Notes: generated from the letters alone by a model not told the origin. A stretch of 64,000 nt of DNA from Piedraia hortae CBS 480.64 (GCA_010093745.1 MU006011.1:1-64000); one strand, 5' to 3'; shown: positions 10,425 through 64,000, counted from the first letter of the stretch. A program made the numbers and translations.

Positions 10425-11807
10425 TCTGCGAGGCCTCGGTCGCCTGCTATAGCTCACTGGGTCTACTCATTTGAAGCTGTCGAGCGGCATAACGCACTCG
10501 AGGGATAAGGGAATGTTTGAACTCTCCATCGATGACCTTCCGGGTGTGAGGACTCCATCTAATCGAGGGCCAGCCTTTGTCGAAGATCAGACTGCAAACC
10601 GCAGAAAAGCAAAACAATCTGGAAGCCACAAATCGCCTGGCCTGCCTGTGTGCTAGGTCCACCGCGTCACCGAAGCAGCTCATCATGCTCTTCGCCTGTG
10701 TCTTGCACATCTCAAATGAACTCCGGAGAGGCACGACGGGATCTACAACGTCTCCGTCCAGATTTTGAGAACAGGGGGACTTCACAGAGGTCCATGCTGA
10801 TTTTTTTTGGTTTATATGTCCTTTCGCTTGGCTTTGTAAACAGGTCGCTGAGCTGGCAGGCGAGAGCAGGCGAGTCTGTCCCATCCGAGGCATTGAGCTT
10901 GCCACAGGCTTGGGGCCGATGTCATGGCCCTTAAGAAAACGAGAAGGGGCGGTCGCACCCACATGATCTGGCACCTTTGAAGAAGCTAGCAGCGATATTC
11001 CCGTTGATAAAAATAGGACTTGACGGCAGCACCATGGTGAAAGGCATCGAATCATAGTCCTTGTCGCTGCCCTAACACGATGATGCGTATGTGCGTAGTC
11101 CGGCTTACACACAGATTATCCGCCCATGACATTCCGTTCCGATCAAAATATTCAGAATCTTTCACCATTCCGGCCGATTGTCTTCGACTACCCTCCTTGG
11201 CAGCTTCCTCTTGTTCTCTGCACTAGTTGTGGGGGCTACAGAACCCAGAAATGCATTTCTCCCATCACACAATGATCTGAAGAGCTTTGCGCTCTCAGTG
11301 GTAGTAGTGGGGACACGAGTGACTAGAACGCTACGTGTGGCATTCAGTCGAGTGACGTCCCAAGTAGACCAGGTCTGTGCAGGTCGAGACGTACAAACAT
11401 CATTCTTGGCCTTGGTTGCAAACACTCTCGTGGCTGTAGACGATACAATAAACTGCACCCCAGTCTGAAGATTAATATGTGTAGAGCCTGACGTCACTCA
11501 TGATTGAGGTTCGCTGATCTCAACGTACAGAGGTATTGGCGGTGGAGAACCGCTCGACCATTAACAAGAATTTACTGTGCCGAGATGAAAAAGCTCCTAC
11601 AAGTATGTAAAAATGAAGGTTTTTTTTTGAGCTGGGAAGATTGGCCTAAAGACTGTGCTGGCCAGTCACATTCCTGTCGTCCAATTCACAAATTGACTCA
11701 ACGCAAAGCTACCCTGCACAGTGAAACAACAAAGCACTGAATATCGATAAACTAGGACTCAATATGAATGCCTGTACAACCACCCAGAAGCCACGCTTGA
11801 CTCAGGT

Positions 11808-27009: not shown

Positions 27010-30000
27010 ATGGGCGAGGCGTTTTAGGTCGAAAGGAAAACCGCAAACCTCGAAGTTGCACACTCTTACCAAAGATGCCTCCGTATCACAGGCTACAGTT
27101 CTCACTTCTCAGCCTTCACAGCTACCCAATGTGCCAGTGCAAGTTTTACATTCAGTGGTAGTTCCCAAAAACCCTTCCAAGACAAGGGCCAATTGTTGCT
27201 TAATGCGCTTGCCGGTCTTACCTCCGATGATCGCATGCTTGTTCAGAAGGAACTAGGTAAAAGCAGCCATCTCGAAAGAGACACAGCTCGCATTATAGCC
27301 TCAAGGGGGCGAAATCAAACTCAAAGTTCCAATCGATGGATCATCGGGATGAGAAAGATTGTTTGTCTGATGATGCAATTTGCACCAGTAGTTGACGTCG
27401 CAGTGAATGTCCAAGGAGACATACTGAGCCTACCATGGGCTGGAATTCGTTCCCTACTGATGGTATGCAGCAATTTCGTAGTTGCAACCCTCATTGACGC
27501 AGTGTCTACAGGTGGCTCAGAAGGTTCACGAGCAAAGTGAGTCGACTTTGAAGGGAAGCGAAACAGCACTGGATACCAGCTACCTCTTGAGGGAGTACTT
27601 TGACATTTACAGTCAAGTCAATTGCACGCCCTAGGTTAAGCATTTGTACGACAACATTGCAAAGTTATACGGCCTCATTCTGAAGTTCTTGGCGAATGTT
27701 CATGAAACGTGCGTTATGAACCGTTTGGAACGTGTGGAACGTATCATTCACACTCTTGCTGGTGATGTTATACCAAACTTTAAGGCCGACCACGACAGAA
27801 CGTTGAAGACTGTTGAATCTCATGCAAGAGTTTGCGACCTTGAGGTATCCGAGGGACAGCGAACAATAATCAATGAACAGCTGAAGACGCTGAGAAAGAC
27901 CCAGGAAGAGATCAATGAAGGAATGAAGGGCACTCAACAAACCCTAGATCTTCGTGCTCTTCCAATCGTTGATGGAGCATCTTGCAACTCCATAGACTAC
28001 CGTAATGGCGATCATAATGGCGAACTAAAATTGTGTCTGGACGGTACCCGGGTGCAGATCGGGAAGAGAATAATGGACTGGGCCACAACCGCCGACGATC
28101 AAAGGGTATTCTGGCTGTCTGGAATGGCAGGGACGGGTAGGTCCGCCATTGCTTGAACTGTTGCCCACGAACTGGGAAACCAAGGTTACTTAGTCCGAAG
28201 CTTCTTTTTCAAGCGTGGCCAGGGCGAACTAAGCCACGTGCGTCGTCTGTTTCCCACTATTGCCCGTTAAATGGCCGAATTCATACCTTATATTAGCCGC
28301 AAGATTGCTGCCGCCTCTGATGGCGTACCTCCTGTTGATGAAAGGCCATTGACAAGTTAGTTCGAGACGCTTATTAAGGAGCCGCTTGTGTGATATAGCA
28401 CAGGCCAGGCAACAGATGTTAGGGTGATTGTCATCGATGCTCTCGATGAGTGCGAGGAATGGGGAGCGATAGGCAACGCCATGACCCTTTGGCACAAGCT
28501 TAGGGCCCACACTTCCATGAATTTGAGGGTGATTGTGACAAGCCGATCCGACAATAAGATTGGAGACAAACTCAAGCAAATAGATTCCGAAGACCTTCAG
28601 CACGCGAAGCTTGAACACTTGCAATCCAGTACTATCAGGCATGACTTGGCCCTGTTTTGTTACAACGAACTTAGCAAGATCCGCGAAAAGAGCAGGGAGG
28701 ATTTAGGTCTTGATGAACTAGAGGATGCCTGGCCAGGAGAGATCGTCGTAAACAAACTTGTTGACATATCTCAGCCACTGTTCATCGCTGCTTCCACGAT
28801 ATTAAGGGACGTGAACAATAATCCACGACAACAATCTCGTAAATGGGTGGGCCGGCTCAACTTCACTGGCGCACAGACGCTAACCGTGATATACTCTGAA
28901 ATCCTGGAAGAAGCCGCTGACCTCGACAAGGAGTGGCTGAGTTGGTTCAGCAAAGTCATTCAATCACTCGCACTTCTACAATCCCCACTCAGCATCCCAG
29001 CACTTACGGATCTGCTTGGAGACGGAGACAACATGGTCGTTCCGAATGCTCTCAAACCTTTGAGCTCCGTAATTGAGTCTCCAAGTGGCAAAGAGATGAG
29101 AGCGGGCTTGCAATCTACTGCAAGAATTTATCACGAGTCGTCCCGAGACTTTCTTTTGGATCCTAATCTCATGACCATATCTCGGTTCTGGACTGACCAA
29201 GAAAAGACACATGTTTTCCTCCTTAACAAATGCATGAAACTGCTCAAGCACAAGCTAGGTCGCGATGTGTGCAAGCGCAAAGGTCCAGGAACAGATTGGA
29301 AATCCACGCCATCAGAGCATGTTTACAAGCATATTCCTGAGTCAGTGCAGTATGCTTGCGTTAATTGGGCCAGCCATGCAACCCAGAGCAATCAGACGAT
29401 CCAAGATGGTGGACAAGTGGGCTGTGTCTTGCGCGAATGTTTCCTATTTTGGACAGAAGCAATGTCTTAGCTGGACAAGCTTGGGAAAATGACGATCAGC
29501 CTAAGCAGTTGGAACGAGCTATTGACATAAGTTTATTGTCCGTTTTTGGTCGAGGGTTTAGCGACTAATCATACGTAGGGAGATCTCTCACCTGGTGTAC
29601 AGTCATTTTTCGCCGATGCTCTAAGATGGCTACCGGCACATCGAATCACGATAAGCGGCGCACCGCTTCAAACATATCTCCCAGCACTGGTTTTTGCGCC
29701 AAATAAGAGTATTGTAAGAAACAGCTTCAAGCAAGAAGTGGACGACTTCTTGCAAGTTTGGTCGCCAGTCGAGAGTGATTGGGGGCTCGAACTGCAAACA
29801 CTGAAAATGCGTGTTGGTTACATGTGGTCGATAGCACCTTCAATTGACGGCAAAAGACTTGTAACGGCTTTGGATGATGGGACAATACGACTATGGAATG
29901 TACAAGACTGTGCCGAAGAGGGGTGTTTGGAGATTGTCTCACGTGGCGTTGCTTCATCTCCCTCTAGAGACAACCTTTCGGTAATCACTGGGGCGAATGG

Positions 30001-31750
30001 TGGTCTTATGAAGTTGCAATCGAGCGAAGAGCCCAGAAGAATCGATTTAAAGCTGCCTGGTCGTGCATGTTGCGTTTCTGTATCTCCAGATGGCCGATTT
30101 TTTGCCGCTCGGGGCCTGGACACGGGCGGCATTTACATTTGGCATGCCGATAACAACCCCAGGAAGGTGATTCAGGGTCACAATTCTCAAGTGCATGGCA
30201 TGGCATTCTCATCGGAAAACGGGTCATTGGTTTCTGGATTCACGGATATCTGGATATGGAGCGCCAAAGGTGGACATGAGATGATGTGCCAAGTAGATGC
30301 TGACGTTGAACACATCGTCATATCACCGGACGGCACTTTCGTAGATTTTTATTCTGAATGCAGTATTTTTGTATTATACTGTGAGACTCGTGAAGTTGAG
30401 CGGATAATGGAAGGGATATGGGATCCTTCGGTTCTCACGTTTACTCCCGACGGCCAGAAAGTCTTGATCACGATTGTCCGAGAACTTTTCCTGTATGCAT
30501 TTGGAACAAAATCCAAGCCTATCAAGCTATCTTTGGATGATCGGGTTGGAAGCTTCCTGTATATCATGGCATTCTCTCCCGATGGAAAAACCACCTGGGC
30601 TGGGTACTCGGATGGAGTGGTGATACAGTTTGACACAACCTTGTTATTGGATAGTCAGCGGCCGAGAGCTGGTGATGCTGCTGTCGCCTTGTCAACAGAT
30701 GGCTTGACGCTCTCTGCCTTATCTCGGTATAGCCAGCTCAGTCTCTGGAATACTGAAACACAGAGTTGCACACACCACATATCACATGAGAGGCTCCACA
30801 ACTTTCACAATTTTGGAAGACATGTCTTAATCTCATCCGATAGCCGTTCAGTGGTTGTTGCCGGTACAGCATGTCGCCAGGGCCAAGTAGTTTTGATTTG
30901 GAACCCTGAAACAGATGAATTGAAGGAGCTCGAAGAGATTCCAGGCCACATTACTGCGACCGCGATCTCAGTTGACAGCAGGACTCTACTTTGCGGCTCA
31001 AAGGAAGGCCAAATATATGCCTATGAATTGAAAAGTGGTGTCCGACCGAGAACGTCAACGGTGCATACGCGCAGTATCAGAGAAATCGTGTGTTCTCCAA
31101 CTGGGCAAGATTTTGCTTCACTATCAGGCGATGAAGAGATAAAGATGTGGAGCCTTCAATCACAAAACCCCTTGACACTCGGCGACAAGGCTACCATACT
31201 CAAATCAGTTTTCTCAGCAGACGTCGTAGGGTTTTCACATTTGATACTTTCAACGACATCTGTGGATGGGACATTGAAAAAGAGTGCAAGGTGCGAAAGC
31301 TTGGAAACGGACCTTTGGTTGGTGGTTCTATACTATTCAATGGTCGCTTCGTGGCTGCAGAATTTCTGCCCCTTCTGCAGAGGTCAAAGGAGGATGAAGG
31401 TGACCAAGCTCTGGCGAAGGCAAATGTTTCGGCATCTACAAAAGCCCCTCAACATTTAAAGACCGCGAGCTTTGGGCTTTGCAAGCATTCGGTATGGGAA
31501 CTGCACGGTGGGTCACTGTGAGTGGTCGGAAAGTAGTCCAGTTTCCAGTTCAGATGAGCCATGGACTTGGGACCTCGTGTGGGCAGAAAATGGTCGTTCC
31601 TCACGATCAGACTGGTTTCACTTTCTTCAATTTTACGGGAAAGATGTCTTTCTAGCGGAGGATACATTTATTGGTGGGCACGAGAATTTTCATAACGCCA
31701 CATACCCAGCATATGTTGTTGAGAAGTATCAGTGCCATACCTCGGCCTGA
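27010..31750 (+). pseudogene. NACHT-WD40 (HET-E/NWD-like fungal NLR) pseudogene
   Basis: N-terminal SLPWAGIR; intron ~27463-27511; CLDGTRV; P-loop WLSGMAGTGRSAIA*; VIDALDEC; IYHES; WD40 repeats; in-frame stops at 28154, 28268, 28358 and 29468. Confidence 0.9.
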
Positions 31751-31939: not shown

Positions 31940-32337
31940 TGTTCTGGGGAATGCGGTGAGACTGAGGTAGTGTGAGGAAGGTTTTGTTACGCTGCTCAGA
32001 GGAAAAGGTTCAATAAGTCCAAACAACGAGGACAATCCAGACTGCTATCTACTGGGAAGCTAGGATACTATAAACCAATCCAGAAGCGCCGTTCATTCGT
32101 GCGTGGTAGCGAGCGTAGCTATGAATAACTAGCAGGGCGCGTCCGTGTATCAAATTCCCTGTGCGCTTAGGCGGCGCGAATCGTCCCGCGCACACACGGT
32201 CTCGCCGTAACAGGTTTCGAACCTCGCCTCATATAGAAATAGACATCTAAATTTCGCTTTTTCAGTCAAAGTTGAGTGAAAACTTTTATCGTCGATATCC
32301 GCTCTCCTTTGGTCATCGGTGGTTCAACCCTCCGAGA
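31940..32337 (-). repeat. Partial family C LTR, interrupted by a family B LTR
   Basis: Reverse complement of ~4375-4540 on both sides of 31985-32212. Confidence 0.8.
31985..32212 (-). mobile_element. Solo LTR (family B)
   Basis: TGTTACG...CGTAACA termini; TSD GGTTT (31980-31984 and 32213-32217); second copy at 62061-62288. Confidence 0.92.
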
Positions 32338-35668: not shown

Positions 35669-35844
35669 TATCACTGGCGTGGACAGAGGAAACAGCGATG
35701 AAAGAAAGACAACGCAACTGCCCGCCCGAGCCGGTTGGCGGAACTATGTACAAGAAACAACTAGTGTATGAGCGACAACACTGTCGATTATGCGATCGAC
35801 ACGCCGAGGCATCGGCAAGGATCGATGCTGGCCACCGCCTCGTA
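35669..35844. mobile_element. Short solo LTR (family E)
   Basis: TSD AGCGT (35664-35668 and 35845-35849); homologous to 52472-52650. Confidence 0.85.
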
Positions 35845-39599: not shown

Positions 39600-39970
39600 T
39601 GTAGCGATAAGGCTCTCATTGATGGGAGTGCGTAGCGGCCCGAGCTAAGAGGACGAAGCAATAGACGGAAATCGACAACAGGGACAGGACAGATGCAGAT
39701 GGATATGAGTTAATACCAGTGTCGACATAACAGTGTGAATGACCATCTATCTCTATGAGGGGACGTTCAGAATGAAAATCTGTACCGGTGGGCCGGTGAC
39801 GTCACGTCGCACATTAGCAGGGCGCATTCGCCATGTCACATATGACATGACCCTGAGGGAAAACCTCTGTGAGGGAAAAATCTAGAGTGCAGCTGGTAGT
39901 GTAGGAGGTATCGCTGACTTGCTATGCAAGTGCCCCGCATACGCGCTAGCGGCGATGCTTAAATCCAACA
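39600..39970 (-). mobile_element. Solo LTR (family A2)
   Basis: Reverse complement of 51504-51866; TG...CA termini; flanks do not form a TSD. Confidence 0.85.
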
Positions 39971-45219: not shown

Positions 45220-45800
45220 NNNNNNNNNNNNNNNNNNNNNNNNNNNNNNNNNNNNNNNNNNNNNNNNNNNNNNNNNNNNNNNNNNNNNNNNNNNNNNNNN
45301 NNNNNNNNNNNNNNNNNNNNNNNNNNNNNNNNNNNNNNNNNNNNNNNNNNNNNNNNNNNNNNNNNNNNNNNNNNNNNNNNNNNNNNNNNNNNNNNNNNNN
45401 NNNNNNNNNNNNNNNNNNNNNNNNNNNNNNNNNNNNNNNNNNNNNNNNNNNNNNNNNNNNNNNNNNNNNNNNNNNNNNNNNNNNNNNNNNNNNNNNNNNN
45501 NNNNNNNNNNNNNNNNNNNNNNNNNNNNNNNNNNNNNNNNNNNNNNNNNNNNNNNNNNNNNNNNNNNNNNNNNNNNNNNNNNNNNNNNNNNNNNNNNNNN
45601 NNNNNNNNNNNNNNNNNNNNNNNNNNNNNNNNNNNNNNNNNNNNNNNNNNNNNNNNNNNNNNNNNNNNNNNNNNNNNNNNNNNNNNNNNNNNNNNNNNNN
45701 NNNNNNNNNNNNNNNNNNNNNNNNNNNNNNNNNNNNNNNNNNNNNNNNNNNNNNNNNNNNNNNNNNNNNNNNNNNNNNNNNNNNNNNNNNNNNNNNNNNC
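45220..45800. other. Assembly gap (581 N)
   Basis: Run of N. Confidence 1.
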
Positions 45801-49936: not shown

Positions 49937-50439
49937 AGTCGCATGACCTTTTCATGTGGACCCATAGGCCAAAGAAACTCGCCTTCAACTTCATGGCCTC
50001 CGATTCCCGCGACGATCTTCAAGGAACGCCGTTTCAAAGAGGCCTTCCGCATCAATAGAGTTAACAGCGGACAATCACAATGACCTGCTGGAAAAGACGC
50101 TCGATGATTATAACAGGTCCCACAGCGCGATTAAATTCGTCACTGGCAACAACTGTCGAACGGACCAGGCAATAGCCAACAGGATGGGTCGGCCACCCAT
50201 TCATTGGCTGCGCCAGCCACCATGTTAATCTAACAGCCCAGGACATACTCGAAGGGTTTGATGCCGAGATTCCGCGCATCAGTGGCTTCATGGTGAGATG
50301 CGCAAGCATGCCAAGCTTGAGCCAGTTACCCGTAACGTCACATGATTTGGATCGACATACCACATGCTCGAACGTGTCTTCGAGATCGAGCGGCGACATC
50401 TACCGTAGGGAAAGATTTGACCACGAAGGGCGACCTAGT

Positions 50440-51110
50440 TCGATGCTGAACTCGTATCGTCATACAAGGATTCGCATAGATCCAAGGCATCGACTACTCC
50501 GAGACATACGTCCCTCTTGCCCGCTTCGACTATATCCGACTCCTTCTCGTGCTCGCCGCCTATTTCAGTATCATGCCCCATCAGATGGATTTTGCCACTG
50601 CGTATCTCAATGCGCCTCTGCCCCATGTCATCTGCATGCATCAACCACCAGGCAAGTCCGAGAACGGCCTTACTCGGACTGCAAAAAGGCTCTCTATGGC
50701 CTCAAGCAGTCAGGACGAGAATGATACGGGACCCTCTCCTCCAAACTTGAACAAGGTACACACAGACAAGGCTGGACCCGTGCATCTTCACACATTCCAA
50801 GCAACAGATCTACATCGGAATATACGTCGGCGATATCTTGATTGTGAGGGACTCCAAAGCGGTCAAAAATTTCAAGGAAACCATGAGCAATACTTTCAAG
50901 CGCAAAGATCTGGGCCTAGCAAAGTGTCTTCTTGGCCTTGAGGTTTTCGCCTCGGCAACCACCATCAAGATGCGTCTTAAGCCAAGCGCGTGCTGGAACG
51001 GTACGGGATGTCGACATGCAATGGGTGCATCACGCCAATGGACCCCACCAACTGCCCCGAACCGGACGACGAGGAGGTGTTAGCCAATTACGGCTCTACC
51101 AGCAGAAGAT
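50440..51110 (+). mobile_element. Ty1/copia reverse transcriptase remnant
   Basis: HQMDFATAYLNA, MHQPPG, KALYGLKQSGRE*, DPCIF, IYVGDIL, KDLG...LGLE, LERYGM; frameshifted. Confidence 0.9.
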
Positions 51111-51503
51111 TGGCATTAAGGGTCGGTGCAGAAGGCAGGGAGGCGGGGAGACTCACCAACTACCAACCTCGCCACCACGTTGTACTTCTTCCCCTTAAGT
51201 TCAGCTTCTGTGCATAGAGGTCGATCGATTGCGTGTCTCGACGTCGACTACACAGACCTGGCATAAATCATTGCTCATTTGAGTGCTTTCATGGTGCTTG
51301 TCGGCCAGACACTGTGATGCCTACGAGCCACGACAGATAATCGCCTTCGGTATTCCATTTTTATACTTTCGACTACCGTGGCGCATCCTAGCTGCCTCAT
51401 CCAATGCGGGGGACAGGTCACGTTTCGCCGGATATGAGGATCGTTTCAACCAACAGAATGCAATTACCGCATGCATTATACAAAACTTGTCTTATAACAG
51501 GCT

Positions 51504-51866
51504 TGTTGGATACAAGCACCGCCGCTAGCGCGTATGCGGGGCACTTGCATAGCAAGTCAGCGATACCTCCTACACTACCAGCTGCACCCTAGGTTTTTCC
51601 CTGACAGGGGTTTTCCCTCAGGGTCATGTCATATGTGACATGGCGAATGCGCCCTGCTAGTGTACGACGTGACGTCACCGGCCCACCGATACAGAGTTTA
51701 TATCCTGAACGTCCCCTCAATTTGAGAAAGATAGTCATTTACACTGTCATATCGACACTGGTATTGACTCATATCCATCTGCATCTGTCCTGTCCCTGAT
51801 TCGGTCTATCGCTTCGTCCTCTTCGGGCCGCTGTGTACTCTCACCAACGCGAGCCTAATCGCTACA
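51504..51866 (+). mobile_element. Solo LTR (family A2)
   Basis: TGTTGG...CTACA termini; TSD AGGCT (51499-51503 and 51867-51871). Confidence 0.92.
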
Positions 51867-52471
51867 AGGCTCCAGAGATCAAGGGAGTGATGTACAACGG
51901 CCATGGCCGCCAACTGGAGGTCTCGGATGGAAACAAGTGGGCAGAAGTCAGGCAATGGGCAGGTCTTCACTGAACCACAAACCCAAGACCATAGGTCAAT
52001 CTCACCGGCGTTTCGTCGTCGCGTCTCATCAAGCTTGAGAAGATGCGTGGCTACACCGTGGTGGGCCGAAGGCAATGTTTTGAGACGATGATGAGCCCGG
52101 AGAGGCGGTGCAGACTACCTTTTAGGGAGATATGAATTACTGAACTGGTCAGCCTGATTCTGGTAAAGATTGCTGGGCGCAATTGCAATACGACCCTGAA
52201 CTAGAGAAACCAAATAGTGTGAAACAGCACGGGCCGCAGACTACAGATTTTTGCATACGGAGAAATGCATGAAGCAGATACAAACCTCATTTCAAACGCA
52301 AACTTTGGAGCCTTGATGATTTACCTTTTTACTTAGGTGGTCTGACAACTGCTCAACATTTCACATTTGCGAAAGGGCGAAGTCGTCGCATCTACCTGGC
52401 TCGAGAAAGCATACCCTCAAAACCGCAAATCGCTGCGGTTGTGAAAATTGAGTTCCTCGCCAGTAACGCAC

Positions 52472-52650
52472 TGTCACTGGTGTGAACAGGGGAAACAGCG
52501 ATGAAAGAAAGACAACAACGCGATTGCTCGCCCGAGCCGGCGGGCGGAACTATGTACAAGAAACAACTAATGTATCAGCGATAACAATGTCGATCATGCG
52601 ATCGACATGCCGAGGCACCGGCAAGGATCGACACTGGCCACCATCTCGTA
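52472..52650. mobile_element. Short solo LTR (family E)
   Basis: TSD CGCAC (52467-52471 and 52651-52655); homologous to 35669-35844. Confidence 0.85.
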
Positions 52651-53185
52651 CGCACTGAAGGGTAATCGTGCTGAAACGCACTCGAAGGTCTGCGTTATGG
52701 CAACATCACTTGATCAATCTGCTCAAGCGAAGAGGGAACTCTTTCGCGGAAGAGGATTGCCATCAATTTCACCGCGCACATCCCTGAGGGTATTGAGGAT
52801 GCCAATCCCCAGGACCCCGTCTCTAGACTCGGCTTTGCATCAAGGTGTGTCCATATGCGATTACCCAATCCTCATATGCCTGTATCTGCATTCAGTGTGA
52901 TCACTACTATACTCGGCTCGAAGATCAACAATGTCATGTAGTATCTATGTTCTATCGATCCTGAAGAAGCAGACGAGGACGAGGTTATCACTGCAAATGA
53001 TCTCGTTGCGGCATATGCTGGCATATTCCTACTCATATGGTCGGTCAGCTCGCAATCAAGATCAATTACAGTGCCGTTGCGAAGTAAGGTCCCAGCCATT
53101 TATCAAGGGAATAGTGCCATCGGAGGGATATCGATTCTGATCCATTATCCTGAGACTATGACAACTTGGTTGTTGCCACCACATT

Positions 53186-53371
53186 ATGGAAGAGCACGAC
53201 ATACAGCTTGAGAGAAGGATTCTTGCTGGACTCAATGCTGAACAAAGCGATGCCTTCAGGGAGTGTATCCATGGGCAATCATCCGTATTCTGCACTGGTG
53301 GAGGAGGTACCGGCATGTCCAGGGCCGTCGAGTCGTTTGTCAGGTGCTTCAGGGACACGCACCCAGCATGA
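53186..53371 (+). pseudogene. Pif1/RecD-like SF1 helicase N-terminal fragment
   Basis: LNAEQSDAF...GQSSVFCTGGGGTG(M)S: Q-motif plus Walker A, one base (AAG>ATG) away from GTGKS. Confidence 0.6.
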
Positions 53372-54059
53372 AAAAATATGTATGTAAACCATGTCGAGGT
53401 TAGGAGACAGTTGGCTGGGACACAATCCTCTAGCACTCTTGAGTAACTTAACGTCGGAATCGGACAGATCGATTTAGCTGGTGTGAACGGAGACGGCCAG
53501 GGGTCTTCAAGAACAAGCTAAATGAGAATGACGATCTTGGGGCGGTTCAAGGCGAGTCGGGTAGCACGAGGCTACTCGCAGGTCGAAGGAACAGATTGCC
53601 ACTAAACGTGTGTCGTGGGTGTGATACGGATCGGAAAGCACACCACACGTTCAATAGGCGTTTTGAACTACAAGGTCATATATTTCCGTCTGAGGTTTCC
53701 GGAGCGGAACCCAAGCATCTGCTTGGATTTGCCGACAATGTCTGTCCGTACAGAGCAGAGGAAGGTCTTGCAAGGTCAATTGCTCTTCTGACTCAAAGTG
53801 TTAAAGCAGCTCTGGGGTGGGGGCAGGATAATCGACTGCAGTCCGCTCCAGGCAAGGCTGATCTAATGCACGTCGCTTGGTCGGGACTATGGACGCTTTA
53901 ACCTTGGAGGTTCACAATGACTCCTGAACCGCACTGTCCGCGGAATGAGCATCCCCAATAGCGTGAGCGATTTCGAGACGACCTTTAAGTCGTCACGTTC
54001 TCGTCATTTGCTGCAAGGATAGAAACAGTCATCCACACAGACGATTGATTAATATTACC

Positions 54060-54859
54060 CCGAGCTAGCTGATCTCTGGACCAAACTTCTTGAGAAGTAT
54101 TTGGCATGCACATCCAATGGGAATGTGTACATATTCCTACCTACCCTGAATAAGTGAGATATACTCTGCTCAGATGAGGCCACGATCAGCCTCAATGCCC
54201 TCATGGAGCTCGACTCTGCATCCGTCAATTATGACGAGGCGTTCCGTCCGTACGTCAAGTACATCGAGAGGAATGCTACTGAGAACATTGCGGCTTCAAT
54301 ACATACGAGTGTGTGCATAGGTACAAAGAGACTGCGTGTGAGTATGCAGAAAGACAGACTCATGTTTGCACTATGCGAACCTGTATTGGCCAACAGCCCT
54401 GCTTATACTAAGTCAAGTGCGATATCATCACTGTGCTACATGCCACTATCTATAAAGTATTGGCCCAAAGAATGGAGTCGCACTGATGACTTCCCTATGT
54501 ACAAATTCATTGCACCTCTCTTTGTGGACCCAACTGAGCTCCTGAGCATAGAGCAGGCTATCGGAAATGCCCTAATCGATCCTGTAGCTTCGAGCAAGGC
54601 GGTAATCCTATACGGTGAGGGAGGCACAGGGAAGAGTACGTTATTGGCTGCCATCAAGACCTCATTCATGGGATGCTGCGGAAGTATCCCAGGAAAATCC
54701 CTTGTGGGGCTCTCTAAGGGCAGCTCAAAGAATCAGACCTCTGAGCTTCCTGTGACAGAAACCATAAGTAAGAAAAACCAACCATATCAATGGAAATGGA
54801 AATCGCTCCAATCCATCATGTCCTTAAACCGCCAGCGATTTGATGGCTCCGCATCCTAA
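54060..54859 (+). pseudogene. D5/SF3-like P-loop helicase/ATPase remnant
   Basis: IGNALIDPVASSKAVILYGEGGTGKSTLLAAI (Walker A at 54614-54637); frame extends upstream through a single TGA (GNVYIFLPTLNK*); degenerates after SLVGLSKG. Confidence 0.6.
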
Positions 54860-57800
54860 AATCAATGCACTGTGGGTTCGGTGAGTACCACGACACCAAC
54901 CTTGAAATCGTTCAAGAGCCATTCTTGGCGTTCGTCGATTCGAACAACGTCTGGCCAATTCGCGCATTACTCTTGAGACGAGCCCATCTTTCCCTCTGGT
55001 CGTCGTCTACCCGGTGCGTTTCGTGGACACGTAGTCGGAAACCTTACACGTTGGCAGAGTGCTATTTATAGGCAGGGACTTTCTATTGTCGCAACCTACT
55101 GAGGAGACGAGACACTTGAGTTACAGGAAGCCCTACATCCAGAATCCCTCTGCTTGCGTTGTCGCGCTATGCCCTCATATATCGAACGTACAGTATATAC
55201 GTCAATGAAAGACCCTCCTCGTAGTCAAGCCTCCTCAACGAAAAGGGAAAACAAGCGATTCACATAGATAACAGCTACCTATCGACCAGTCGCCGAATAA
55301 TATAGAGCTGTCTTTGCCGGTGTGCCGGCGATCCTATACCGCAGGGGATCACCAAATCACTTGCTGACTTCCCCGGGCAGACGCAGCTCAGCTTCGCACC
55401 AAGTTTAAATTGTCGAGGCAAAGCTTAAAACAGAAGCCAATGCTCACTTTCTGTGAGCAGTGACTCCGGAGGAGTGAAGAGAGCACCCCAATCGTGGGCG
55501 CAGATACCGGGGATTGGCGCATCCCAACCAGAAAGAGACTGTATAGGATGGGTCACTGTTGGCTTGGAGATGACATGTGACGAGAGGTGTCGGCCCTGCA
55601 AGTATTCTGTGCGTACCGCAGGTCACTCTGTTGAGCGATGCAGGTCAGTTCGTTGGGCGATATATTGCGCACGTCGTTTAGACTCGTGGGAAGCCTGGCG
55701 ACTAGGTTTTCGAGTCATGCTTTATCGTTTCGAGGTGCCGTGGTGCCGACAGACCATGCTATACTTGGAGGTTTTATTGTTCGTTGGTACTTTTGATATA
55801 CGCTTCTTGTAGCAGGCAGTCCTTCGAAAGTTGGTGGCCGTGATGATGCAGAGCGAGAAGCTAATCATATGGTCGGCATTAGATCTTAAACCACGAATGA
55901 GAAGGCCTCTGCAAGACTCTGAAGTGTCTCAATGTTTTGGTTGTGCTACGCTCAAAATTTGTAACACGATGCTTTTCCACGGATAAGAAAGGTGGGGAAA
56001 AGGCCCCACCTGAATAATGGGTAGCACCCAAATACTCGCAAACTCTACTCATGCACAATACCGGCACTTGGTAAACCAGTTTCAGTCCGAAACGTACAAG
56101 GGCTTGAACTTACATCCACAGCTATTCGCACAGCCTCCATGACTATCGAATCACCAAGTTACCGCAGCGCAGGCACAGCGGTGCGACAAACTTAAAGATA
56201 ACATAGCAGCGTGTCCTCGGTTGCGACTCATTCTCACCAACTTCCACAACAGTACGAGATCAAATGGAGTAGTCGCACGGTTTCTACAACCGGCGGACCG
56301 ACACCTCCGCCCAATTATCATCTTGAACAAAATGGCTAGTCCCATCCGGCTTCAGCCGGTTGGGATGCACGCCATGCCCTGGTCACAATTGCCGTGTATC
56401 CACGGTCTTGGGCGCTCAGTCCTGGTATTTGGGCAGGGACTGCTATTACCTATTGAAATCCTGCCCCGATGAACTCATGTCATTTCACGAGGGACAGGTT
56501 GCACTTGCCTGGAACGCCAGCAAGTTGCAAATCCTGTATGGGATCCAGATCCTGCTTTTCAGACACCAATGGCCTTTAAGATCAAAATGCAGCCGAGCGA
56601 GGGAGCTAGTTGAAGGAGGCCATGTTCAAGTTGAGTCACACGAGGCTCTTTAGGGATTTGCTGGGTTGCCGTGCCTTGGAGCATTCCGACGGTTGATGGG
56701 CTCCGCGAACCAAGATCCACTGGCACCGTTTGAAACAACCCATCCTAGCGCAACTCAAGGGGATCGCTAGGGCATCTCAAAAGCAGCCAGTTCGGGACCG
56801 CTAGGCTGGTGGCGTGCTGCTGTGCCATCAGCAAACCATGAATAAACCTTGGTAAGAAGCTGATGCTCTTCTGCAAAATACTAATTCACAGTAGCAAACA
56901 AGGACAAACATTGCGACTACGCTGTTCATCATGAAATGTTTTGGCATACAATGACACGACTGTTCTCGCGTTCCTTTCAAGATCCCAGTGTACCTCTACC
57001 TTGTCCCTGGTGGAGTGATAGCCAGCCTCGTTCCACGCAATGGTTCATTCGACACATCTCTATGTCGATCACTGTGTACAACGACAAAGTCGACTGTCCC
57101 ATGATTTTTCCTCCCATTGAACTGTATTCTTCTTTCTGATTCCCATTATGACGCTGGAATTGCTTCCGTCACTCGTGGCTCTCTACACATTACTCACGTT
57201 ATTGGAGAGTCCACTAGCAACTTTCGCACACTGGCAATAGGTTTACCTTGCCATACCCGAACATGTCTTTGCAGAAGCATTTGTGAAGTTTGCAGAGTAG
57301 TTATATATGTCTGAGAAAGCATATCTTGCAGCTCCTCGCGTTTTGGGCGTGAGCTGCTCACATGGGAAAGTAATGGAGCAAAATTTGTCTGGTGCCTGGG
57401 ACAGAGATGTCTTACGCGCATCCTATGCGGCAAAGATAACATTACTACAGTAAGCATTACGACTTAACGCGAGTAGATTATTTGAATGCATCGATTGCTG
57501 GGGCTTCAATTGGACAGTCTGGGCGAGAGAGAACGTTGGGAGTACCGTGTTTGGAAATGGCCACTTGGGCATCGGCCATAGAGAATCCAGACATCATGCC
57601 ATGTAGAGATCGGGATGAATTTATTTATATGCCAAGCCTCTTTACACGGGCCTAATTACCCAAACTTCACTCCATGTCCTCCTAATGGATAGCATTCGCA
57701 TGACAGCATGTGCAAAACGTTTTAAATTAAATAATAGCGACGCACGAAGGCGAATTAAATTGACGTGACACGTTCAGAGGTCATATTCATGGATAGGACG

Positions 57801-58082
57801 CGAAGTGACACGCAGTGACGCGCCCAAGTCAACCCGCGAATATTCATTCCGCTTCCTCCGCTTCCTCTGTCTCTTCTACAACATCCTATCCCGAAATCAT
57901 ATTTACTCATAATGCCACGCCGCACCAGCCTCGCTGCTGCCATGCGCGGACGAACATGTTGATAAGGCAGTTGCCGACAAGTTGCTGTTGGAGCTTGCTG
58001 CCGACGCCAGCATTTTGCGCGTTTCAGGTGAGCCTATGCCACGTGTTGCAATTAAATATTCCCCTCGCAATGGGCCCTAAGT

Positions 58083-58645
58083 ATGACTTCCGATACTAAC
58101 GATACCCTAAATAGCAACGTGGTTGGCACCGTAGATCTCGACATCATCGTCAAGCTTCAAACGGTGGGCGAGAGCGCCATCAATGTGGAATACTTTCCCA
58201 GTCGTTTCACTGAAGCGAGGATCCGCTTGCCGGAGCTGAGATCCTGCACGTCGGTCTTTCCCAACGGCATGCTTGTTGTGACAGGGACATCGTACTGAGC
58301 CAACTGTCGTCTTGCTGGGCTTAAGATTGCGCGCATGCTGCAAACTGTCGGGTACAAGCTACTTTTTGGGGGCTCCAAGGTCACTAATATGGTAGCGAGT
58401 GCCGATCTGGGCTACTAAGTGCATATGCATGCAATGAAGGCATCACTGGAACTAGAAGAGCATATTTTACTGTGCATCTTTGAATCTGAGTTGTGCTGTG
58501 TATTGACCTACAGATTCGAGAAGCTTTCAGTAGCCGTGTATTCCACTGGAAATGTGGTGTTCAGTGGCGCCACAGCTGGAGACGCTATCACGGACACTTA
58601 AAATCATATCACCACTTTTCCTCGCCCGTTTTGCATCGAGAAGTC
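58083..58645 (+). pseudogene. Divergent intronless TATA-binding-protein-like gene
   Basis: Both TBP repeats in one frame: NVVGTVDL..EYFPSRF..SVFPNGMLVVTG* ..KIARMLQTVGY..KVTNMVASADL..* ..FESEL..LTYR..VYSTGNVVFSGA; stops at 58296, 58416 and 58599. Confidence 0.85.
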
Positions 58646-59037
58646 ACGAATACTGAGCAGCATTGATGGCCGTTGTTAGGAGGTAGCGCGATCAGTAGCG
58701 GATGTTGGCCTATCGGTATGACACGTTCTTAAGGCATGGCGGGACTGGGTGGGCTAGGGCTCTCATAATAGCTGAGCATAGATTTATATGCAATTTACAG
58801 ACTATTCTGTTCATTAAAGTTCTCTTTCCACTGATCTGATACACAGATGCGGCCCCAAAGAAACGTAATGCAAAGCGCTGGGCATCCACTTTCCAGTACA
58901 TCAAACGTTTTTCCGAGTTGCTGCATTACTTGGCAGACGAGATCCAAAGGTCGTATTACTTCTGCCAAAGGTGATATGTCAGGGGTTTTTGACCGGTGGA
59001 AGGATGGAAACCTGTAATCATGAAAACAGACCCCGAT

Positions 59038-59814
59038 CTACTCACTACACACGGATCTGTCTCGACAACTCGCAAAATCCTTGCTGCCCAACTCACTCTC
59101 GCCTTCATCATTTGACTCGGGTGCATTGTCCTTGCAACGCTGCTTTCCCTTGAATGCCGCTCTCTGGGCCTGAAAATCTTCCCCTAAATCTCGCCGGTAA
59201 TTGCGCGAAAAACTCAAGGCCTCGTTATGCTTGCTACTTGCAGAGATGGGGAACTCCTTGACGGGACACTCCGCCAGAACAATCGGAGGAAGGGAGATGG
59301 GCACCAGCCCCCTTGTCTGCGGACGCTTGCCGCGGAGCGGTTTATGATTTTCCCGTTCGGAGACCATCTTTCTTGCCCTCCTTTCCATTTCTGTCTCCTC
59401 CTTCTCAATTGCCCGAGGCGCCTTTCGTTTCTTCTGGAGCTTGCGGCGTGGGCGTTCAGGCTTGGAGAGGATACGGTGAAGGGGATTTGAAGGTTTGCTG
59501 TCCTCGGGGGCCGCCACTGCCTCGAACACAGGCACGTCCGCCTTGGGGTGGTAAAATGGAGTACCGGTAGGGTCTGGCGCAGAGTTGTGAAATTGCGCCG
59601 CTTGAATGGCGCCATCGTCGTCTGTGTAAAAGAATATATGGTTTTCCGTTTTATATATGATGTCGGGCTCAACTGGTGCCGGCCAGCGGCAGTTTTCCCA
59701 TGCGAAATTTGCCTGGTCTTCATGGCGTGAGGAATTTGCTGTGTTCTTGCATAGTCTAAGAACATGGTCCTTCACGGAGAGAAGAATTTTCTTCAGGGTC
59801 GTCTTGGAAGGCAT
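59038..59814 (-). CDS. Hypothetical basic protein (orphan)
   Basis: Intact 258-aa ORF from an ATG with a pyrimidine-rich leader; K/R-rich RRKLQKKRK; no recognisable domain. Confidence 0.5.
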   Translation of the reverse strand: MPSKTTLKKILLSVKDHVLRLCKNTANSSRHEDQANFAWENCRWPAPVEPDIIYKTENHIFFYTDDDGAIQAAQFHNSAPDPTGTPFYHPKADVPVFEAVAAPEDSKPSNPLHRILSKPERPRRKLQKKRKAPRAIEKEETEMERRARKMVSERENHKPLRGKRPQTRGLVPISLPPIVLAECPVKEFPISASSKHNEALSFSRNYRRDLGEDFQAQRAAFKGKQRCKDNAPESNDEGESELGSKDFASCRDRSVCSE

Positions 59815-60118
59815 TGTGGAGATCGTGTGTAGACGATATTGGTATCAGGAAGATTGAAGGAGGGTTTCGACAGTAGAAGATAGAACAGAGGAGGTTGCAA
59901 ACATGATTTGTTGCTATCTTTCCGTGAGCCACACATGTTGGCTTGGAGAGTTAAAAATCACAGTGGATTGACTCAAGACAACTCTATTGTCTCCGAGAGG
60001 AAAGTGGGTGCAAGAACAACACATGTACCAAGGATGAGCTGGAGATAACTTCAAAGTCGTTACGACTGATTAACTTGAGCTTGTGGTTTATTATCGTAGC
60101 TTCATCACCGAAGGAGTC

Positions 60119-60172
60119 CATGTCAAGTTCTGTCGAGTGACATGTCAAGTTCTGTCGAGTGGCATGTCAAGT
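60119..60172. repeat. 22-bp tandem repeat, ~2.5 copies
   Basis: CATGTCAAGTTCTGTCGAGTG(A/G) twice, plus CATGTCAAGT. Confidence 0.9.
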
Positions 60173-60389
60173 AACTGGGACGGTGCAGGCGAGGAAGTGT
60201 CCCTTGACACATTCAAGGTCTCTTGACGAACGTCAGCAGTATTGGAGCTGCGTGTCAACTCAGCTCTGGGATTGCCTTTCTTGTTGTAGTTGACAAACCC
60301 CCACTGTGTAGCAACGCTGACTTCTGCAGGTTCTACTATGAGGCGTTAAACCCTCTAATATAGTATACAGCTAGCTCGCAACTGTGAGC

Positions 60390-60545
60390 TTAGATAGAGG
60401 TCGACGCTTCTCAGGGTTTTTACCTCCATAGGAGGAAGTTTTCCCTGGGACGAGGCACGATGCCGTTCATGCTCTGTGCGTGCACGGTGACGTGGTCTCG
60501 GTGAATGCGGCTGGACCTGGGCTAGCCTGGGGTAAAGTTTCATAC
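60390..60545 (-). repeat. Degenerate partial family C LTR
   Basis: Reverse complement matches CCGCATTCACC...GGTAAAAACCCTGAGAAG...TCTATCTA of 4521-4641. Confidence 0.65.
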
Positions 60546-61920
60546 TTCACCTCACCACATTACCTCAGCATTTACATACACACATAGCAACACATATATG
60601 TGTCTCACACACCATTGCCTGACCCATAAAATCCGACATCAACTATCATCTGAATCGTTGGTATATCATGGCGAGTAACGCATCGTTGTACACAATGCTC
60701 GCTTCGAGGCTGTTTTGCGAAACTTCACGTCACTCGCACAGACCATCTGGAAATGTCTGCACCGTAAAGCTTGAATGAGCAATGCTCTTGTCAAATATTT
60801 GGAACAAAGCAGCAAAATAATAGCAAGGTATCCGAATTCCACATTCAATGTACCTTAACAACAATGACACACCGTTCGGTAATGGCTTCGTGTCGGTGAA
60901 ATGTACGGCTCGGAAATCCTCCCTTACCAATAACCACACATTCGTCCAGCTCTTCGATACATAAAATCACTCAACGCCCACATTTTAATGTCTACTCATA
61001 CTGCACAACTTAACGCGATAAACCACGACCAACCAAGAATCAAAACGATTACCACGGGTTCACCTCTGGATCTCAAGCCTTTGACTTACTCTCGTCGAGT
61101 TCATGTTAGCCGGCACCTACCATCCTGATAAACCGGTTCTTATCGATGCGGACAACCCTGCGAGGTTTGTCCCTCTTCGCAGGGCACATATCGGCATTAA
61201 ATACCTCCGACGCTTCTTCTATCCTCGCACGGTCGTCTGCACGCATTTGCAGAATGGTGTGCGCTATCCGCTATACGTGCTAAGCATCTTAGCAGCCTGT
61301 GCCATCTGGAACGGCATTCATACTTTATACACGGCGGCAGAGGTCCAGCACCATTTCGTCACCTCGAACACCGCTTAGATCATAACTGAGATGGAACATG
61401 TTGAAACAATTCAAGTTGCGATCGATTCCAGCTCAAGATCAAGGTCCTCCTGCTGTCCGATATGGCAAACAGCACGATGAAGAGTTCTGGACCTCATTCG
61501 TACATTAACCTGATCAGCGTGGCTGTTATGATGAACACGAGCGGCACAGCATGCCTGTCAAAGACTGTGGCCAGCAGCCTTCGTGCTTTCATTAATGACC
61601 TGATCGATGCGGGGTCCACAGAAGGTACCAGGGATTACGAAATTCGTCGAATATTCTGCGTGCCCATCCTCCGCGGATATGGCGCGCCAGAAATGACCTT
61701 CAACGCCTTGCATTATGGCCATGTCAGCTTTTTTCATGCGCCGCCTGGATGGAACGTTTGCGCAGAAATTCCACAATTTCGGCATTACCAAGATGGATGG
61801 GGCTCCGTCTCGGAAGCTGCATCTGGTCAACGACCTGTCTCATTACCATTTCCTCCAGTCGCTGTGCCGCATTTCTGTCGGGGGCGCCAAACTGGCGCCG
61901 GAGTTGAGAAAGGTGACACT

Positions 61921-62060
61921 TGTTGCATTCAACATCGCCGCTAGCGCGTATGCTGGGCACTTACATAGTAAGTCAGCGATACCTCCTACACTACCAGCTG
62001 CACCCTAGGTTTTTCCCTCACAGTGTTCTCCCCTCAGGGTCATGTCATATGTGACATGGT
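61921..62060 (+). mobile_element. 5' part of a family A2 LTR, truncated at a family B LTR
   Basis: Matches the first ~140 bp of the 51504 LTR. Confidence 0.85.
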
Positions 62061-62288
62061 TGTTACGGCAAGACTGTGTGTGCGCGGGACGACCCGCGCT
62101 GCCTAGGCGCACAGGGAATTTGATACACGGACGCGCCCTGCTAGTTATTCATAGTTACGCTCGCTACCACGCACGGATGAACGGCGCTTCTGGATTGGTT
62201 TATAGTATCCTAGTTTCACAGTAGATAGCAGTCTGGATTGTCCTCGTTGTAGGGACTTATTGAACCTTTTCCTCTGAGCACCGTAATA
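62061..62288 (+). mobile_element. Solo LTR (family B)
   Basis: Reverse complement of 31985-32212; TGTTACG...CGTAATA termini; no TSD. Confidence 0.88.
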
Positions 62289-62582
62289 CGCGGCGCCATA
62301 TGCGAGATGAACACAAAAGGCGGGACCGTGAACAATATCTGTAATTCAGTGTCTATTGTAGTTTTGTTGTGCATACGTCCAAGATAGTATGGAACTTTCT
62401 CATTCGCCTGTACTGCCAAAGCGCAATTCTGTTTATACACGTCATCGGTTCACTTCATGGGTGCACACGCCACCGTTACCCCGTCTCATCGCACTTCACC
62501 TTTCAACACGATCATCGAAACCTTTGAAAAGTCTCATCCATTCTGAGTCTTGATTTTCTTGCCCACATATATCGTGCCCTCA

Positions 62583-64000
62583 ATGGGCGCGACGCTTAAA
62601 CTCGCAAGGAAAACCGCAGACTTTGAAGTTACACACTCCCATTTCACATGCTTCCGTGTCACAGACCTTAGATCCCGGTTCAAGACTCTCTAACATGCTC
62701 CTGCAAGCTCCAGCCCCAGTTATACTTCTGGAGAATTCCTTTCAGGATAGGAGGGCGTTGAGGCTCGACTCCCTGGCCGGTCTCCCATCCGATGATCGCA
62801 TGCTTGTTGAGAAAAAACTTTGTTCAAATAGTGACCTCGACCGGGATACGGCCCGCATAATGGCCTTGCAGTGTCAGAATCAAACAGAACGGTCCAATGG
62901 ATGGCAGAGTGGGATGAGAATGATTGGTCGACTGATGATGCAATTTGCGCCAGTATTTAAAGTCGCTACAAATGCCCAAGCAGGCGTGCTCAGCCTGCCT
63001 TGGACTGCTATCTGCTCCCTCTAAATGGTAAGCAGAAGTGGTCTGATTGATACCTTAAGTAACACTATCTCTACAGGTGGCTCAATAGGTTCACCAGCAG
63101 AATGAGTCAATCTGAAAAGGAATTGAATAGCACTAGACACAAGCTACTTCATCACCGTGTATCTTGATATCTACAGCCAGCTTATTGGCACGCCCTCGAT
63201 CACACATCTGTATGAGAACATTGTCAAGTTATATGGTCTTATCCTGATGTTCTTTTCGCGAAAATCGACAGAACAGGCGAAATGAACACGAGGAGAGTGT
63301 TATGCATTCGCTCGCGGATGAGGTTATACTGAGGTTCAGAACCTAAAACGACACATTGCTGGAAACTGTTGGGTCTCATGCAAGAGCTTGCAATGCTGAG
63401 GTATCCGCGGAAAAGAGGGCAGTTGTCCACAGCTAAAGGTGCTGAGAAGGCCCAGGAAGAGGTCAATGACGGAGTGAAGGGCATTCAACAAATCCTAGAT
63501 CTTTGTGCTCTTCCGATCGCTGATAAAGCAGCTTACAACTCCATGGACTACTGTAATCCCGATCACAATGGCGAGCTACAGCCGTGTCTGGACGGTACCT
63601 GGGTGCATATCAGGAAGAGAATAATGGCCTGGACCACCGCCAACGATCAAAGGGTAATGTGACTATCTGGAAATGCAGGGAGGGGTAAATCCACAATTGC
63701 CCGAACCGTTGCCTACGAACTAGGGAAACAGGGTTACTTGGTCGGAAGCTTCTTTTTCAAGCGTGGCCAGGGCAAAATTGCCGGATCACTGAAGTAACTC
63801 GACGCTGATTTGGCATTAAAGGGTCAGGAGAAAAAGCTCGGCCCCGCTACTGTCGCTTTGTCCAAAGACGGCCAATTGATTGCCTCACTGTCTCCACCTC
63901 AGAAACTAGGCCTTTGGAATGCTGGAACACAGATCTGCGGAAAAGAATTACTGGATGCGAGCCTTCTCAATATTACCTTGTCGTCTGGAAGCCTGGTCTT
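62583..64000 (+). pseudogene. Second NACHT-WD40 pseudogene, paralogue of the 27010 locus with a large internal deletion
   Basis: LAGLPSDDRMLV, SLPWTAI, same intron position, CLDGT, GRGKSTIARTVA, SFFFKRGQG, then a jump to WD40 VALSKDG. Confidence 0.88.

Follow-up and report, generated by a model that had tools for sequence, protein, structure and literature searches.

The window analysed here, a 64,000-nucleotide stretch of the Piedraia hortae CBS 480.64 assembly (GCA_010093745.1, MU006011.1:1-64000), raises the question of what kind of DNA left broken helicase genes and a divergent gene for TATA-binding protein (TBP) between 52.6 and 62 kb. The initial annotation of the locus proposed the decayed relic of an endogenised large DNA virus or giant mobile element. 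This proposal was partly supported, in that relics of mid-size virus-like replicons were recognised and a giant virus was not borne out. Based on homology, gene order, clade membership, and the breaks in the reading frames, together with RNA-like sequence cover, we consider it probable that a single family of mid-size double-stranded DNA (dsDNA) replicons inserted here two or more times and left its relics at the locus.

Remnants of D5-type and Pif1-type helicases

A helicase remnant that we denoted helB corresponds to the N-terminal half of a D5-type superfamily 3 (SF3) helicase (Table 1). Positions 54074-54742 aligned by tblastn with residues 34-256 of a 460-aa protein of Blumeria hordei (P0005), with 65% identity over 223 aa (E = 9.8e-96). 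An in-frame stop at 54155-54157 severs the first ~60 residues; the open reading frame (ORF) at 54158-54859 then stays open for 233 codons, retains a Walker A motif (GEGGTGKST, at ~54608-54634), and is cut short before Walker B. The initial annotation had placed a D5/SF3-like helicase at 54060-54859, and the D5/E5 fold of the family agrees with that assignment; however, what the window holds is a broken N-terminal half. In Pfam, the ORF showed generic P-loop matches only (best AAA_23, 1.8e-4; DUF5906, 0.15), and in PHROGs it matched 'DNA primase' families at 7e-6 to 1e-5 (best 7.3e-6). The D5-type assignment is therefore based on PHROGs, the relatives, and the family fold rather than on the Pfam matches of helB itself.

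The relatives were collected by searching 1.84 billion representatives exhaustively with HMMER; 102 proteins passed E ≤ 1e-3, of which 54 reached E ≤ 1e-10, and most were 450-470 aa long. A 139-aa gene model (P0004) is identical to the window helB, and the next-nearest relative is P0005, which is named 'SF3 helicase domain-containing'. Among 18 relatives scanned, DUF5906 was found in 10 at E ≤ 0.01 and exceeded the Pfam cut-off in three, one protein was fused to NADAR, one came with a family B DNA polymerase, and none had a primase Pfam domain. In P0008, the NADAR domain precedes the SF3 helicase as an N-terminal fusion. Residues G214, G216, G219, K220, and S221 of Walker A are invariant in the family, as are D268, N308, and R326/R327, which we take to be Walker B, motif C (the sensor Asn), and the arginine finger. 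The window does not retain these three motifs, with family residues 257-321 absent from both of its helicase pieces.

An AlphaFold model was built for P0005, using an alignment of 23 relatives, rather than for the window fragment (pLDDT 87, pTM 0.88). Its best PDB fold matches were vaccinia D5 and mpox E5 (E = 7e-10), followed by the SaPI5 primase-helicase and African swine fever virus (ASFV) PrimPol; Foldseek comparisons with 8hwh_A, 8wh0_B, and 8apl_A gave E-values of 7e-10 to 7e-9, prob 1.0, and TM-scores of 0.40-0.50. The BFVD matches were phage primase-helicases, D5-like proteins of nucleocytoplasmic large DNA viruses (NCLDVs), and virophage S3H. A PDB sequence search with the helicase profile, however, returned P-loop noise only (E ≥ 0.2). 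Judging from the model, D5/E5 fold matches combined with an empty sequence search indicate that the family consists of D5-type SF3 helicases that are very divergent and have no primase domain. Scanning IMG/VR with the helicase alignment yielded 69 loci, none of them close (23-36% identity, covering part of the core).

Upstream of helB lies a second piece, helA, which the initial annotation had overlooked. This C-terminal remnant has an in-frame stop at 52939-52941 and matched P0006 (42% over 108 aa, E = 7.9e-20), the helicase of the metagenomic contig L070 (40% over 89 aa, E = 6.5e-17), and P0005 (31%) in tblastn searches. Directly downstream of helA, the Pif1/RecD-like fragment of the initial annotation was confirmed at 53144-53353 on the plus strand by tblastn with the Pif1 of L070 (33% over 70 aa; E = 1.8e-7 in the whole window and 1e-8 in the 5.3 kb searched). 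The Pif1 of the isolate assembly G001 gave a second match (29%, E = 1.4e-5). The Walker A (motif I) of the remnant reads GGTGMS, with the lysine replaced, and nothing past ~70 aa remains. Pfam PIF1 did not match the window piece; the two query proteins themselves scored 6e-39 (L070) and 7e-37 (G001) against it.

The order of helA and the Pif1 remnant is that of L070, in which PIF1 (11623-13071) lies on the same strand immediately after the helicase (9962-11350). It should be noted that gene order varies among the replicons: L072 has no Pif1 after its helicase, and L071 has another gene before it. This makes the order that L070 and the window have in common informative, and helA and the Pif1 remnant are supported as foreign pieces that belong together and are collinear with L070. 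There is good support for a viral or mobile origin of the helicase and Pif1 pieces.

The initial annotation had named phylogenies of the helicase and the TBP as a check, and the helicase pieces could be placed. In the analysis of the C-terminal columns, helA has P0124 as its nearest neighbour (62% identity over 121 columns) within the clade of the L070 helicase, and forcing it into the Blumeria clade costs 61.7 log-likelihood units (approximately unbiased test, p = 0.0015). helB falls in a clade with the Blumeria proteins P0005, P0106, and P0107 (support 99). On these alignments, helA and helB thus stem from different clades of one helicase family, which means two or more insertions, or an insertion nested within another. 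Thus, the proposed decayed self-replicating element holds as far as the helicase and Pif1 are collinear with L070, but with two helicase clades it was not one insertion.

The gene order and the fold also bear on the explanation that each piece came from an ordinary, unrelated source, with the Pif1 from a Helitron, the helicase from a cellular AAA ATPase, and the TBP from a retrocopy of the host SPT15. The helicase ORF taken alone has generic P-loop matches in Pfam, and the region is rich in dispersed repeats and adjoins a Copia relic, which speaks for this explanation. However, the fold of the family is that of D5/E5, with no match to a cellular AAA protein, the Pif1 piece adjoins a helicase C-terminus as in L070, six-frame Pfam searches of 51.2-64 kb found no Helitron Rep or other transposase domain, and the TBP is only ~40% identical to canonical TBPs. 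Nor can the TBP be a retrocopy, since it retains an intron. We consider this explanation extremely unlikely and largely refuted by the L070 order and the D5/E5 fold. A Helitron as the element itself was not supported either: no HUH Rep or Helitron domain was present in the six frames of 51.2-64 kb, and the L070 Pif1 is a stand-alone protein of 482 aa.

Free replicons and the origin of the remnants

Among the 40 helicase relatives listed, 19 are on contigs of 19-36 kb, and those with fungal names are Blumeria hordei (a 669-kb contig) and Golovinomyces cichoracearum. L070 is a contig of 31,399 bp, of which 21.3 kb was analysed and ~10 kb lay outside the comparison. It is coding-dense on both strands with ~40% GC. 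Its helicase is P0130, and the longest recorded P0130 contig measures 31,413 bp; this agreement in size suggests a complete genome of ~31.4 kb. L070 encodes an RNA polymerase (RNAP) beta'-like protein (Rpb1 domain 2, 2e-5; phrog_2987, 1e-9; archaeal Rpo1N, 4e-6) with a GDYDGDE motif, and an RNase H-NADAR fusion at 7112-8062 on the minus strand. NADAR domains recur in the replicon family, in this fusion and in the helicase fusion of P0008. A 513-aa ORF possibly has a UDG-like N-terminus, a lead only, as the Atlas match was under threshold (score 0.88, TM 0.35); the PDB sequence search with a 396-aa ORF was empty.

A second, more distant member, with 33% identity in the helicase, is found in G001 on two coding-dense contigs of 50% GC, C63 (L114, 12.7 kb) and C65 (L113, 10.1 kb). 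G001 is an assembly titled 'Streptomyces' isolate. The GC content of Streptomyces is ~70%, and the two contigs therefore probably represent a co-assembled foreign replicon. Its genes encode the helicase, RNase H, a UDG-like protein, an Rpb2-like protein of 801 aa, a 745-aa TFIIS-zinc-ribbon protein, PIF1, and an Rpb1-like protein, with the Rpb2-like, TFIIS-ribbon, PIF1, and Rpb1-like genes on C65. Seven genes are common to L070 and the G001 replicon. Most replicon ORFs had no Pfam or PHROG match, and no HUH domain was detected in the parts of the reference replicons compared. The gene set of SF3 helicase, Pif1, RNase H, UDG-like protein, and RNAP subunits suggests that these replicons largely provide their own replication and transcription.

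The relics may be explained as follows. Free, coding-dense replicons of ~19-36 kb, presumably autonomous and hosted by fungi, carry a primase-less D5-type SF3 helicase, Pif1, RNase H, a UDG-like protein, and RNAP beta/beta'-like subunits. One insertion, from the L070-like clade, would have left the helicase C-terminus and the Pif1 N-terminus, and the N-terminal helicase half would stem from another, of the Blumeria-like clade. Both would then have decayed through stops, truncations, and the loss of the Walker A lysine, owing to which none of the pieces can work.

Two sequencing runs cover the window, X1, which is probably source DNA, and X2, which behaves as RNA. An X2 contig (depth 3.9) skips from 58025 to 58113, the 87-nt intron of the TBP-like gene with its cut shifted by +2, and X2 also skips a 66-nt CT..AC segment (GT..AG on the minus strand) in PRP39; neither joint is present in X1. 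A 43-nt GT..AG segment at 56850/56894 is skipped in a low-depth X2 contig, again with no such joint in X1, which suggests a spliced transcript in ORF-less sequence between the helicase remnants and the TBP-like gene. The X2 depth ranges from 0 to 463 between neighbouring contigs, with host-gene contigs at 141-463, and there is no X2 cover at 58674-59861 and in parts of 61-63.4 kb. Joints in X1 at 52640 to 62061, 54804 to 61933, and 52604 to 58473 were taken as repeat artefacts (sides of 26-34 nt).

One X2 contig spans helA, the Pif1 remnant, and helB (Table 1), and its depth invites the idea that the helB ORF, with its collar domain and Walker A, was domesticated as a truncated protein or a regulatory RNA. 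The ORF is open for its full 233 codons, is 65% identical to an intact relative, and has an identical annotated gene model in P0004. However, helB has neither Walker B nor motif C nor the arginine finger, and its stop removes the first ~60 residues. Furthermore, the contig continues through non-coding sequence to 56384 and the Copia relic is likewise covered, so that the cover looks like pervasive transcription rather than function. Domestication is therefore very unlikely.

Several observations weigh against an origin from repeated replicon insertions. Capsid, packaging ATPase, DNA polymerase, and integrase were unrecognised in the six-frame Pfam search of 51.2-64 kb and, with Pfam and PHROG, in the compared parts of the reference replicons (~10 kb of L070 outside), so that the word 'virus' is not established. 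Neither integration boundaries nor target-site duplications nor termini could be found at the locus, and the repeat that brackets the region is a dispersed one: a 127-nt direct repeat was rejected as element termini because it is part of the ~370-nt dispersed repeat (Table 1). GC content (0.47-0.52) and repeat-induced point mutation (RIP) indices at 50-64 kb are the same as in the non-coding remainder of the window and give no sign of foreign origin. RIP-like indices occur nowhere in the window, and the decay of 50-64 kb is thus not RIP-like. Of the 9.3 kb, only ~1.25 kb can be recognised as derived from the element; elsewhere in the window, nothing matched ORFs of L070, L073, or L113. One relative sits in a 'Streptomyces' isolate assembly at 50% GC, and the fungal host of the free replicons is presumed. 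Finally, X2 is read as RNA from three GT..AG joints.

The same searches give no support for a large DNA virus or giant element as the source. The initial annotation had seen no capsid, polB, integrase, or termini, and six-frame Pfam and self-blastn gave the same outcome. No A32 ATPase, VLTF3, major capsid protein, or family B DNA polymerase was found in the six frames of 51201-64000 or in the compared parts of the reference replicons, although divergent capsids could escape Pfam, and the free relatives are ~19-36 kb in size. Two other kinds of element were likewise unsupported as candidates. A Starship had no DUF3435 captain in the 109 ORFs of ≥100 aa in the window or in the six frames of 51.2-64 kb, a search that covered 64 kb only, and a Polinton-Maverick had no polB or rve integrase in the same ORFs and frames.

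The TBP-like pseudogene

Positions 58083-58598 form one frame with a complete two-repeat TBP core that is interrupted by two in-frame stops (TGA at 58296-58298 and TAA at 58416-58418), both of which align with Arg in the Piedraia proteins P0002 and P0003. Residues 14-47 of P0003 match 57946-58047 (tblastn, 56%, E = 9e-6) in a frame that differs from that of the core. Because of the two stops and the out-of-frame 5' exon, the window TBP is a pseudogene. It was described in the initial annotation as a very divergent intronless TBP. The divergent two-repeat core stands; however, the gene is not intronless, since X2 contigs skip 58028-58114. The X2 cover of the pseudogene is weak (depth ~4) and spliced.

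The core aligned with TBPs of the PDB over residues 9-167 (best 1.3e-19), and those of fungi, human, microsporidia, and plants scored alike, at ~1e-19 to 1e-17. It is about equally distant from the canonical TBPs of all eukaryote groups (~40% identity). Its only close relatives are P0002 (71%) and P0003 (67%) of Piedraia hortae, both on one 287,431-bp contig. A profile search returned 635 TBPs, of which the Piedraia proteins scored 388-399 bits before a drop to 144 bits. In the tree, the window and Piedraia sequences are joined (support 100) on a very long branch, whose position among the TBPs is not resolvable. The first repeat keeps the Phe pair, whereas the second shows F to C and F to Y replacements in the window, P0002, and P0003; the Phe pairs of both repeats are, we assume, the residues that insert into DNA. 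Scanning IMG/VR with the TBP alignment gave nothing, and Atlas placed P0003 with TBP clusters only. The pseudogene thus belongs to a small, fast-evolving TBP paralogue family of Piedraia hortae and is a spliced gene of nuclear type.

The initial annotation had further proposed that the element carried its own transcription factor. The RNAP subunits of the replicon family agree with this in part, pointing to a source element that replicates itself and has a transcription apparatus of its own. However, no TBP was found at the sequence level in 21.3 kb of L070, in L071-L073, or, with PF00352, in the whole G001 assembly, and the link of the TBP to the helicases is therefore one of proximity. Likewise, the expected co-occurrence elsewhere was found for the helicase with Pif1, in L070, but not for the TBP with the helicases.

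A single composite element, in which the TBP-like gene, the helicase pieces, and Pif1 all derive from one ~30-kb kind of replicon using its own RNAP and TBP, is possible but doubtful. It corresponds to the proposal of the initial annotation, reduced from a giant virus to a replicon of this size. An initiation factor of their own is plausible for replicons that encode RNAP beta, RNAP beta', and a TFIIS-ribbon protein, and the window TBP lies on the same strand as helB at a distance of 3.2 kb. In addition, the TBP clade is patchy: it is limited to the window and Piedraia, with two copies on one Piedraia contig, and shows no resolved nesting among fungal TBPs. Against this stand the TBP-free reference replicons, the lack of any close TBP-like protein from Blumeria or Golovinomyces in the TBP searches, and the character of the gene itself, as a eukaryote-type TBP (~40% to canonical ones) with a spliceosomal intron fits a nuclear cellular gene.

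The composite element would gain from A4, a 353-aa protein conserved in three replicons (L070, L071, and G001). Its model has a pLDDT of ~80 over residues 100-345 and 63 overall, and the only whole-domain fold matches of the predicted C-terminal domain were TBPs (Foldseek prob 0.98-0.99, E = 5e-3 to 6e-3, TMt 0.44-0.45). In VIA, alignments with TBPs over 136-149 residues gave Z-scores of 6.4 (1mp9_B, 146/189 residues), 5.9, and 5.7; values below 8 are within the stated background of the tool. Furthermore, hhalign found no similarity between A4 and the TBP profile (prob 0.1%). A4 as a putative TBP-fold protein is thus a lead.

More broadly, ascomycetes might host, or might recently have hosted, an undescribed virus- or plasmid-like dsDNA lineage of ~25-31 kb with a minimal two-subunit RNAP, a primase-less D5-type helicase, Pif1, and a TBP-type factor. 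It would have integrated repeatedly, at least twice here and also in powdery mildews, and the divergent TBP genes of the window and Piedraia would be element genes that have settled in the nucleus. We regard this larger scenario as unlikely, and keep to at least two insertions of mid-size replicons as the probable history of the locus.

Setting of the locus and comparison with known systems

Host genes extend up to ~49.5 kb and encode a kinesin, DGAT, mS41, Stk19, PAPA-1, a DEAD-box helicase, PRP39, and WD40 proteins; a run of 580 N occupies 45220-45799. Long ORFs vanish beyond 50 kb. The Copia fragments (Table 1) are the relic of a neighbouring retroelement outside the studied element. The ~370-nt dispersed repeat has at least six copies in the window, 85-97% identical in pairs and of very high multi-copy depth in X1 and X2, and is probably a miniature inverted-repeat transposable element or a solo long terminal repeat. 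Other short repeats pair 52474-52650 with 35671-35844, 62061-62286 with 31987-32212, and 60391-60554 with 4479-4641.

Table 1 Features of the window
Feature	Position	Strand	Basis or remark
helA, C-terminal remnant of D5-type SF3 helicase	52735..53106	+	Family residues ~322-443; tblastn
Pif1/RecD-like SF1 helicase, N-terminal remnant	53144..53353	+	~70 aa; tblastn with L070 and G001 Pif1
helB, N-terminal half of D5-type SF3 helicase	54040..54859 (homology ends 54742)	+	Family residues ~34-256
3772-nt X2 contig	52613..56384		0 differences, depth 255
TBP-like gene, 5' exon (N-terminal extension)	57913..58027	+	Out of frame with core
TBP-like gene, intron	58028..58114	+	87 nt, GT..AG; skipped in X2 contigs
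TBP-like core, two repeats, pseudogene	58115..58598	+	Pfam TBP 2.9e-22
Copia-type reverse transcriptase fragments	50176..51083	+	Pfam RVT_2 1.2e-12 and 8.7e-11
~370-nt dispersed repeat copies	603-974, 6610-6980, 10051-10420, 39600-39970, 51504-51866; partial 61919-62060		self-blastn

Apart from the TBP and generic P-loop matches, the six-frame Pfam search of 51201-64000 gave NPHP3_N and weak AMP-binding matches only. The 1-kb stretch at 62773-63773 is 74% identical to 27208-28225, and both are NPHP3_N/NACHT-type NLR N-termini (Pfam 7e-7 and 1.3e-6), the copy at 27208-28225 running on into a long WD40 array at 29579-31456; the two are paralogous NLR-like genes on either side of the repeat-rich zone. 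Two adjoining plus-strand frames at 61085-61944 faintly resemble AMP-binding (acyl-CoA ligase-type) domains in the six-frame search (E = 0.0068, under the Pfam cut-off), with nothing at E 0.01 in Pfam for the single ORFs, and may be an eroded host-type gene. The longest open frame of the studied region, at 59038-59844 on the minus strand, encodes 268 aa with a Lys/Arg/Glu-rich middle and had no Pfam, PHROG, or replicon ORF match and no X2 cover.

Through this locus, an ascomycete-like chromosome is linked to a coding-dense replicon family of ~19-36 kb, as are Blumeria and Golovinomyces through homology, and relics of two clades of such replicons are brought together at one site. Provided that fungi are the hosts, the relics indicate a concrete group of mid-size DNA elements in filamentous fungi, which could be searched for as episomes or virions, with the helicase, Pif1, and RNAP beta and beta' as the marker set. 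If the TBP link is true, the pseudogene would be a case of an element-borne TBP turned nuclear gene. The literature searched, whose supplements may list such regions, yielded no account of this helicase family or of replicons of this kind, and a replicon family of ~19-36 kb with its own transcription genes is apparently undescribed. A 2026 preprint reports that fungi have so far yielded no isolate of a Baltimore class I (dsDNA) virus, and it places viral regions in 153 fungal assemblies (10.1101/2025.04.19.649669); the available text of another mentions Polinton or polinton-like virus signals for Glomeromycota and chytrids only (10.64898/2026.06.19.733378).

The closest known proteins by fold are the primase-helicases D5/E5, ASFV C962R, and those of P4/SaPI5. 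The 460-aa family model fits the helicase part of D5 at residues 323-785 (SF3, D5N collar plus AAA+), and Walker A, the invariant D268, N308, and R326/R327, and the DUF5906 and PHROG 'DNA primase' matches are shared features. However, the family has no AEP primase domain, is only 450-470 aa long with 10-15% sequence identity, and is represented in the window by fragments. The TBP-like gene resembles TBP-related factors of the TRF2/TBPL1 type as a divergent paralogue with the second-repeat phenylalanines replaced, but outside the TBP domain it shows no sequence kinship with metazoan TBPL1; its clade is limited to the window and Piedraia, and the copy in the window is broken.

The cytoplasmic linear virus-like elements of yeasts, of the pGKL type, are AT-rich, 8-14 kb in size, and have a protein-primed polB and an SF2 helicase. 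The replicon family here differs in its size of ~19-36 kb, its GC content of 40-50%, its SF3 and Pif1 helicases, and the lack of a recognised polB. Both are nevertheless dsDNA associated with fungi, and the yeast elements, which are extrachromosomal, also have their own reduced, non-canonical RNAP of multisubunit type according to PMC6211774.

The endogenous Nucleocytoviricota of fungi (PMC7017919, Gong et al. 2020; Mycodnaviridae, PMC13533422) are likewise relics of dsDNA-virus-like genes in fungal chromosomes. In PMC7017919, as far as its accessible text shows, such relics were found through DNA polymerase, with NCLDV core genes and sometimes beside retrotransposons. In contrast, the window and its family have no recognised polB or capsid, the free relatives are ~19-36 kb in size, and the host is ascomycete-like. 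The giant-virus relics of these two papers belong to other groups of fungi: PMC13533422 concerns zoosporic fungi, and the main text of PMC7017919 never uses the word 'Ascomycota'. Mriyaviruses (35-45 kb; PMC11253617) are also mid-size dsDNA viruses whose SF3 helicase has an absent or inactive primase domain. They have no RNAP subunits and all carry an HUH endonuclease, whereas the replicon family here, with no HUH detected, encodes RNAP beta and beta'.

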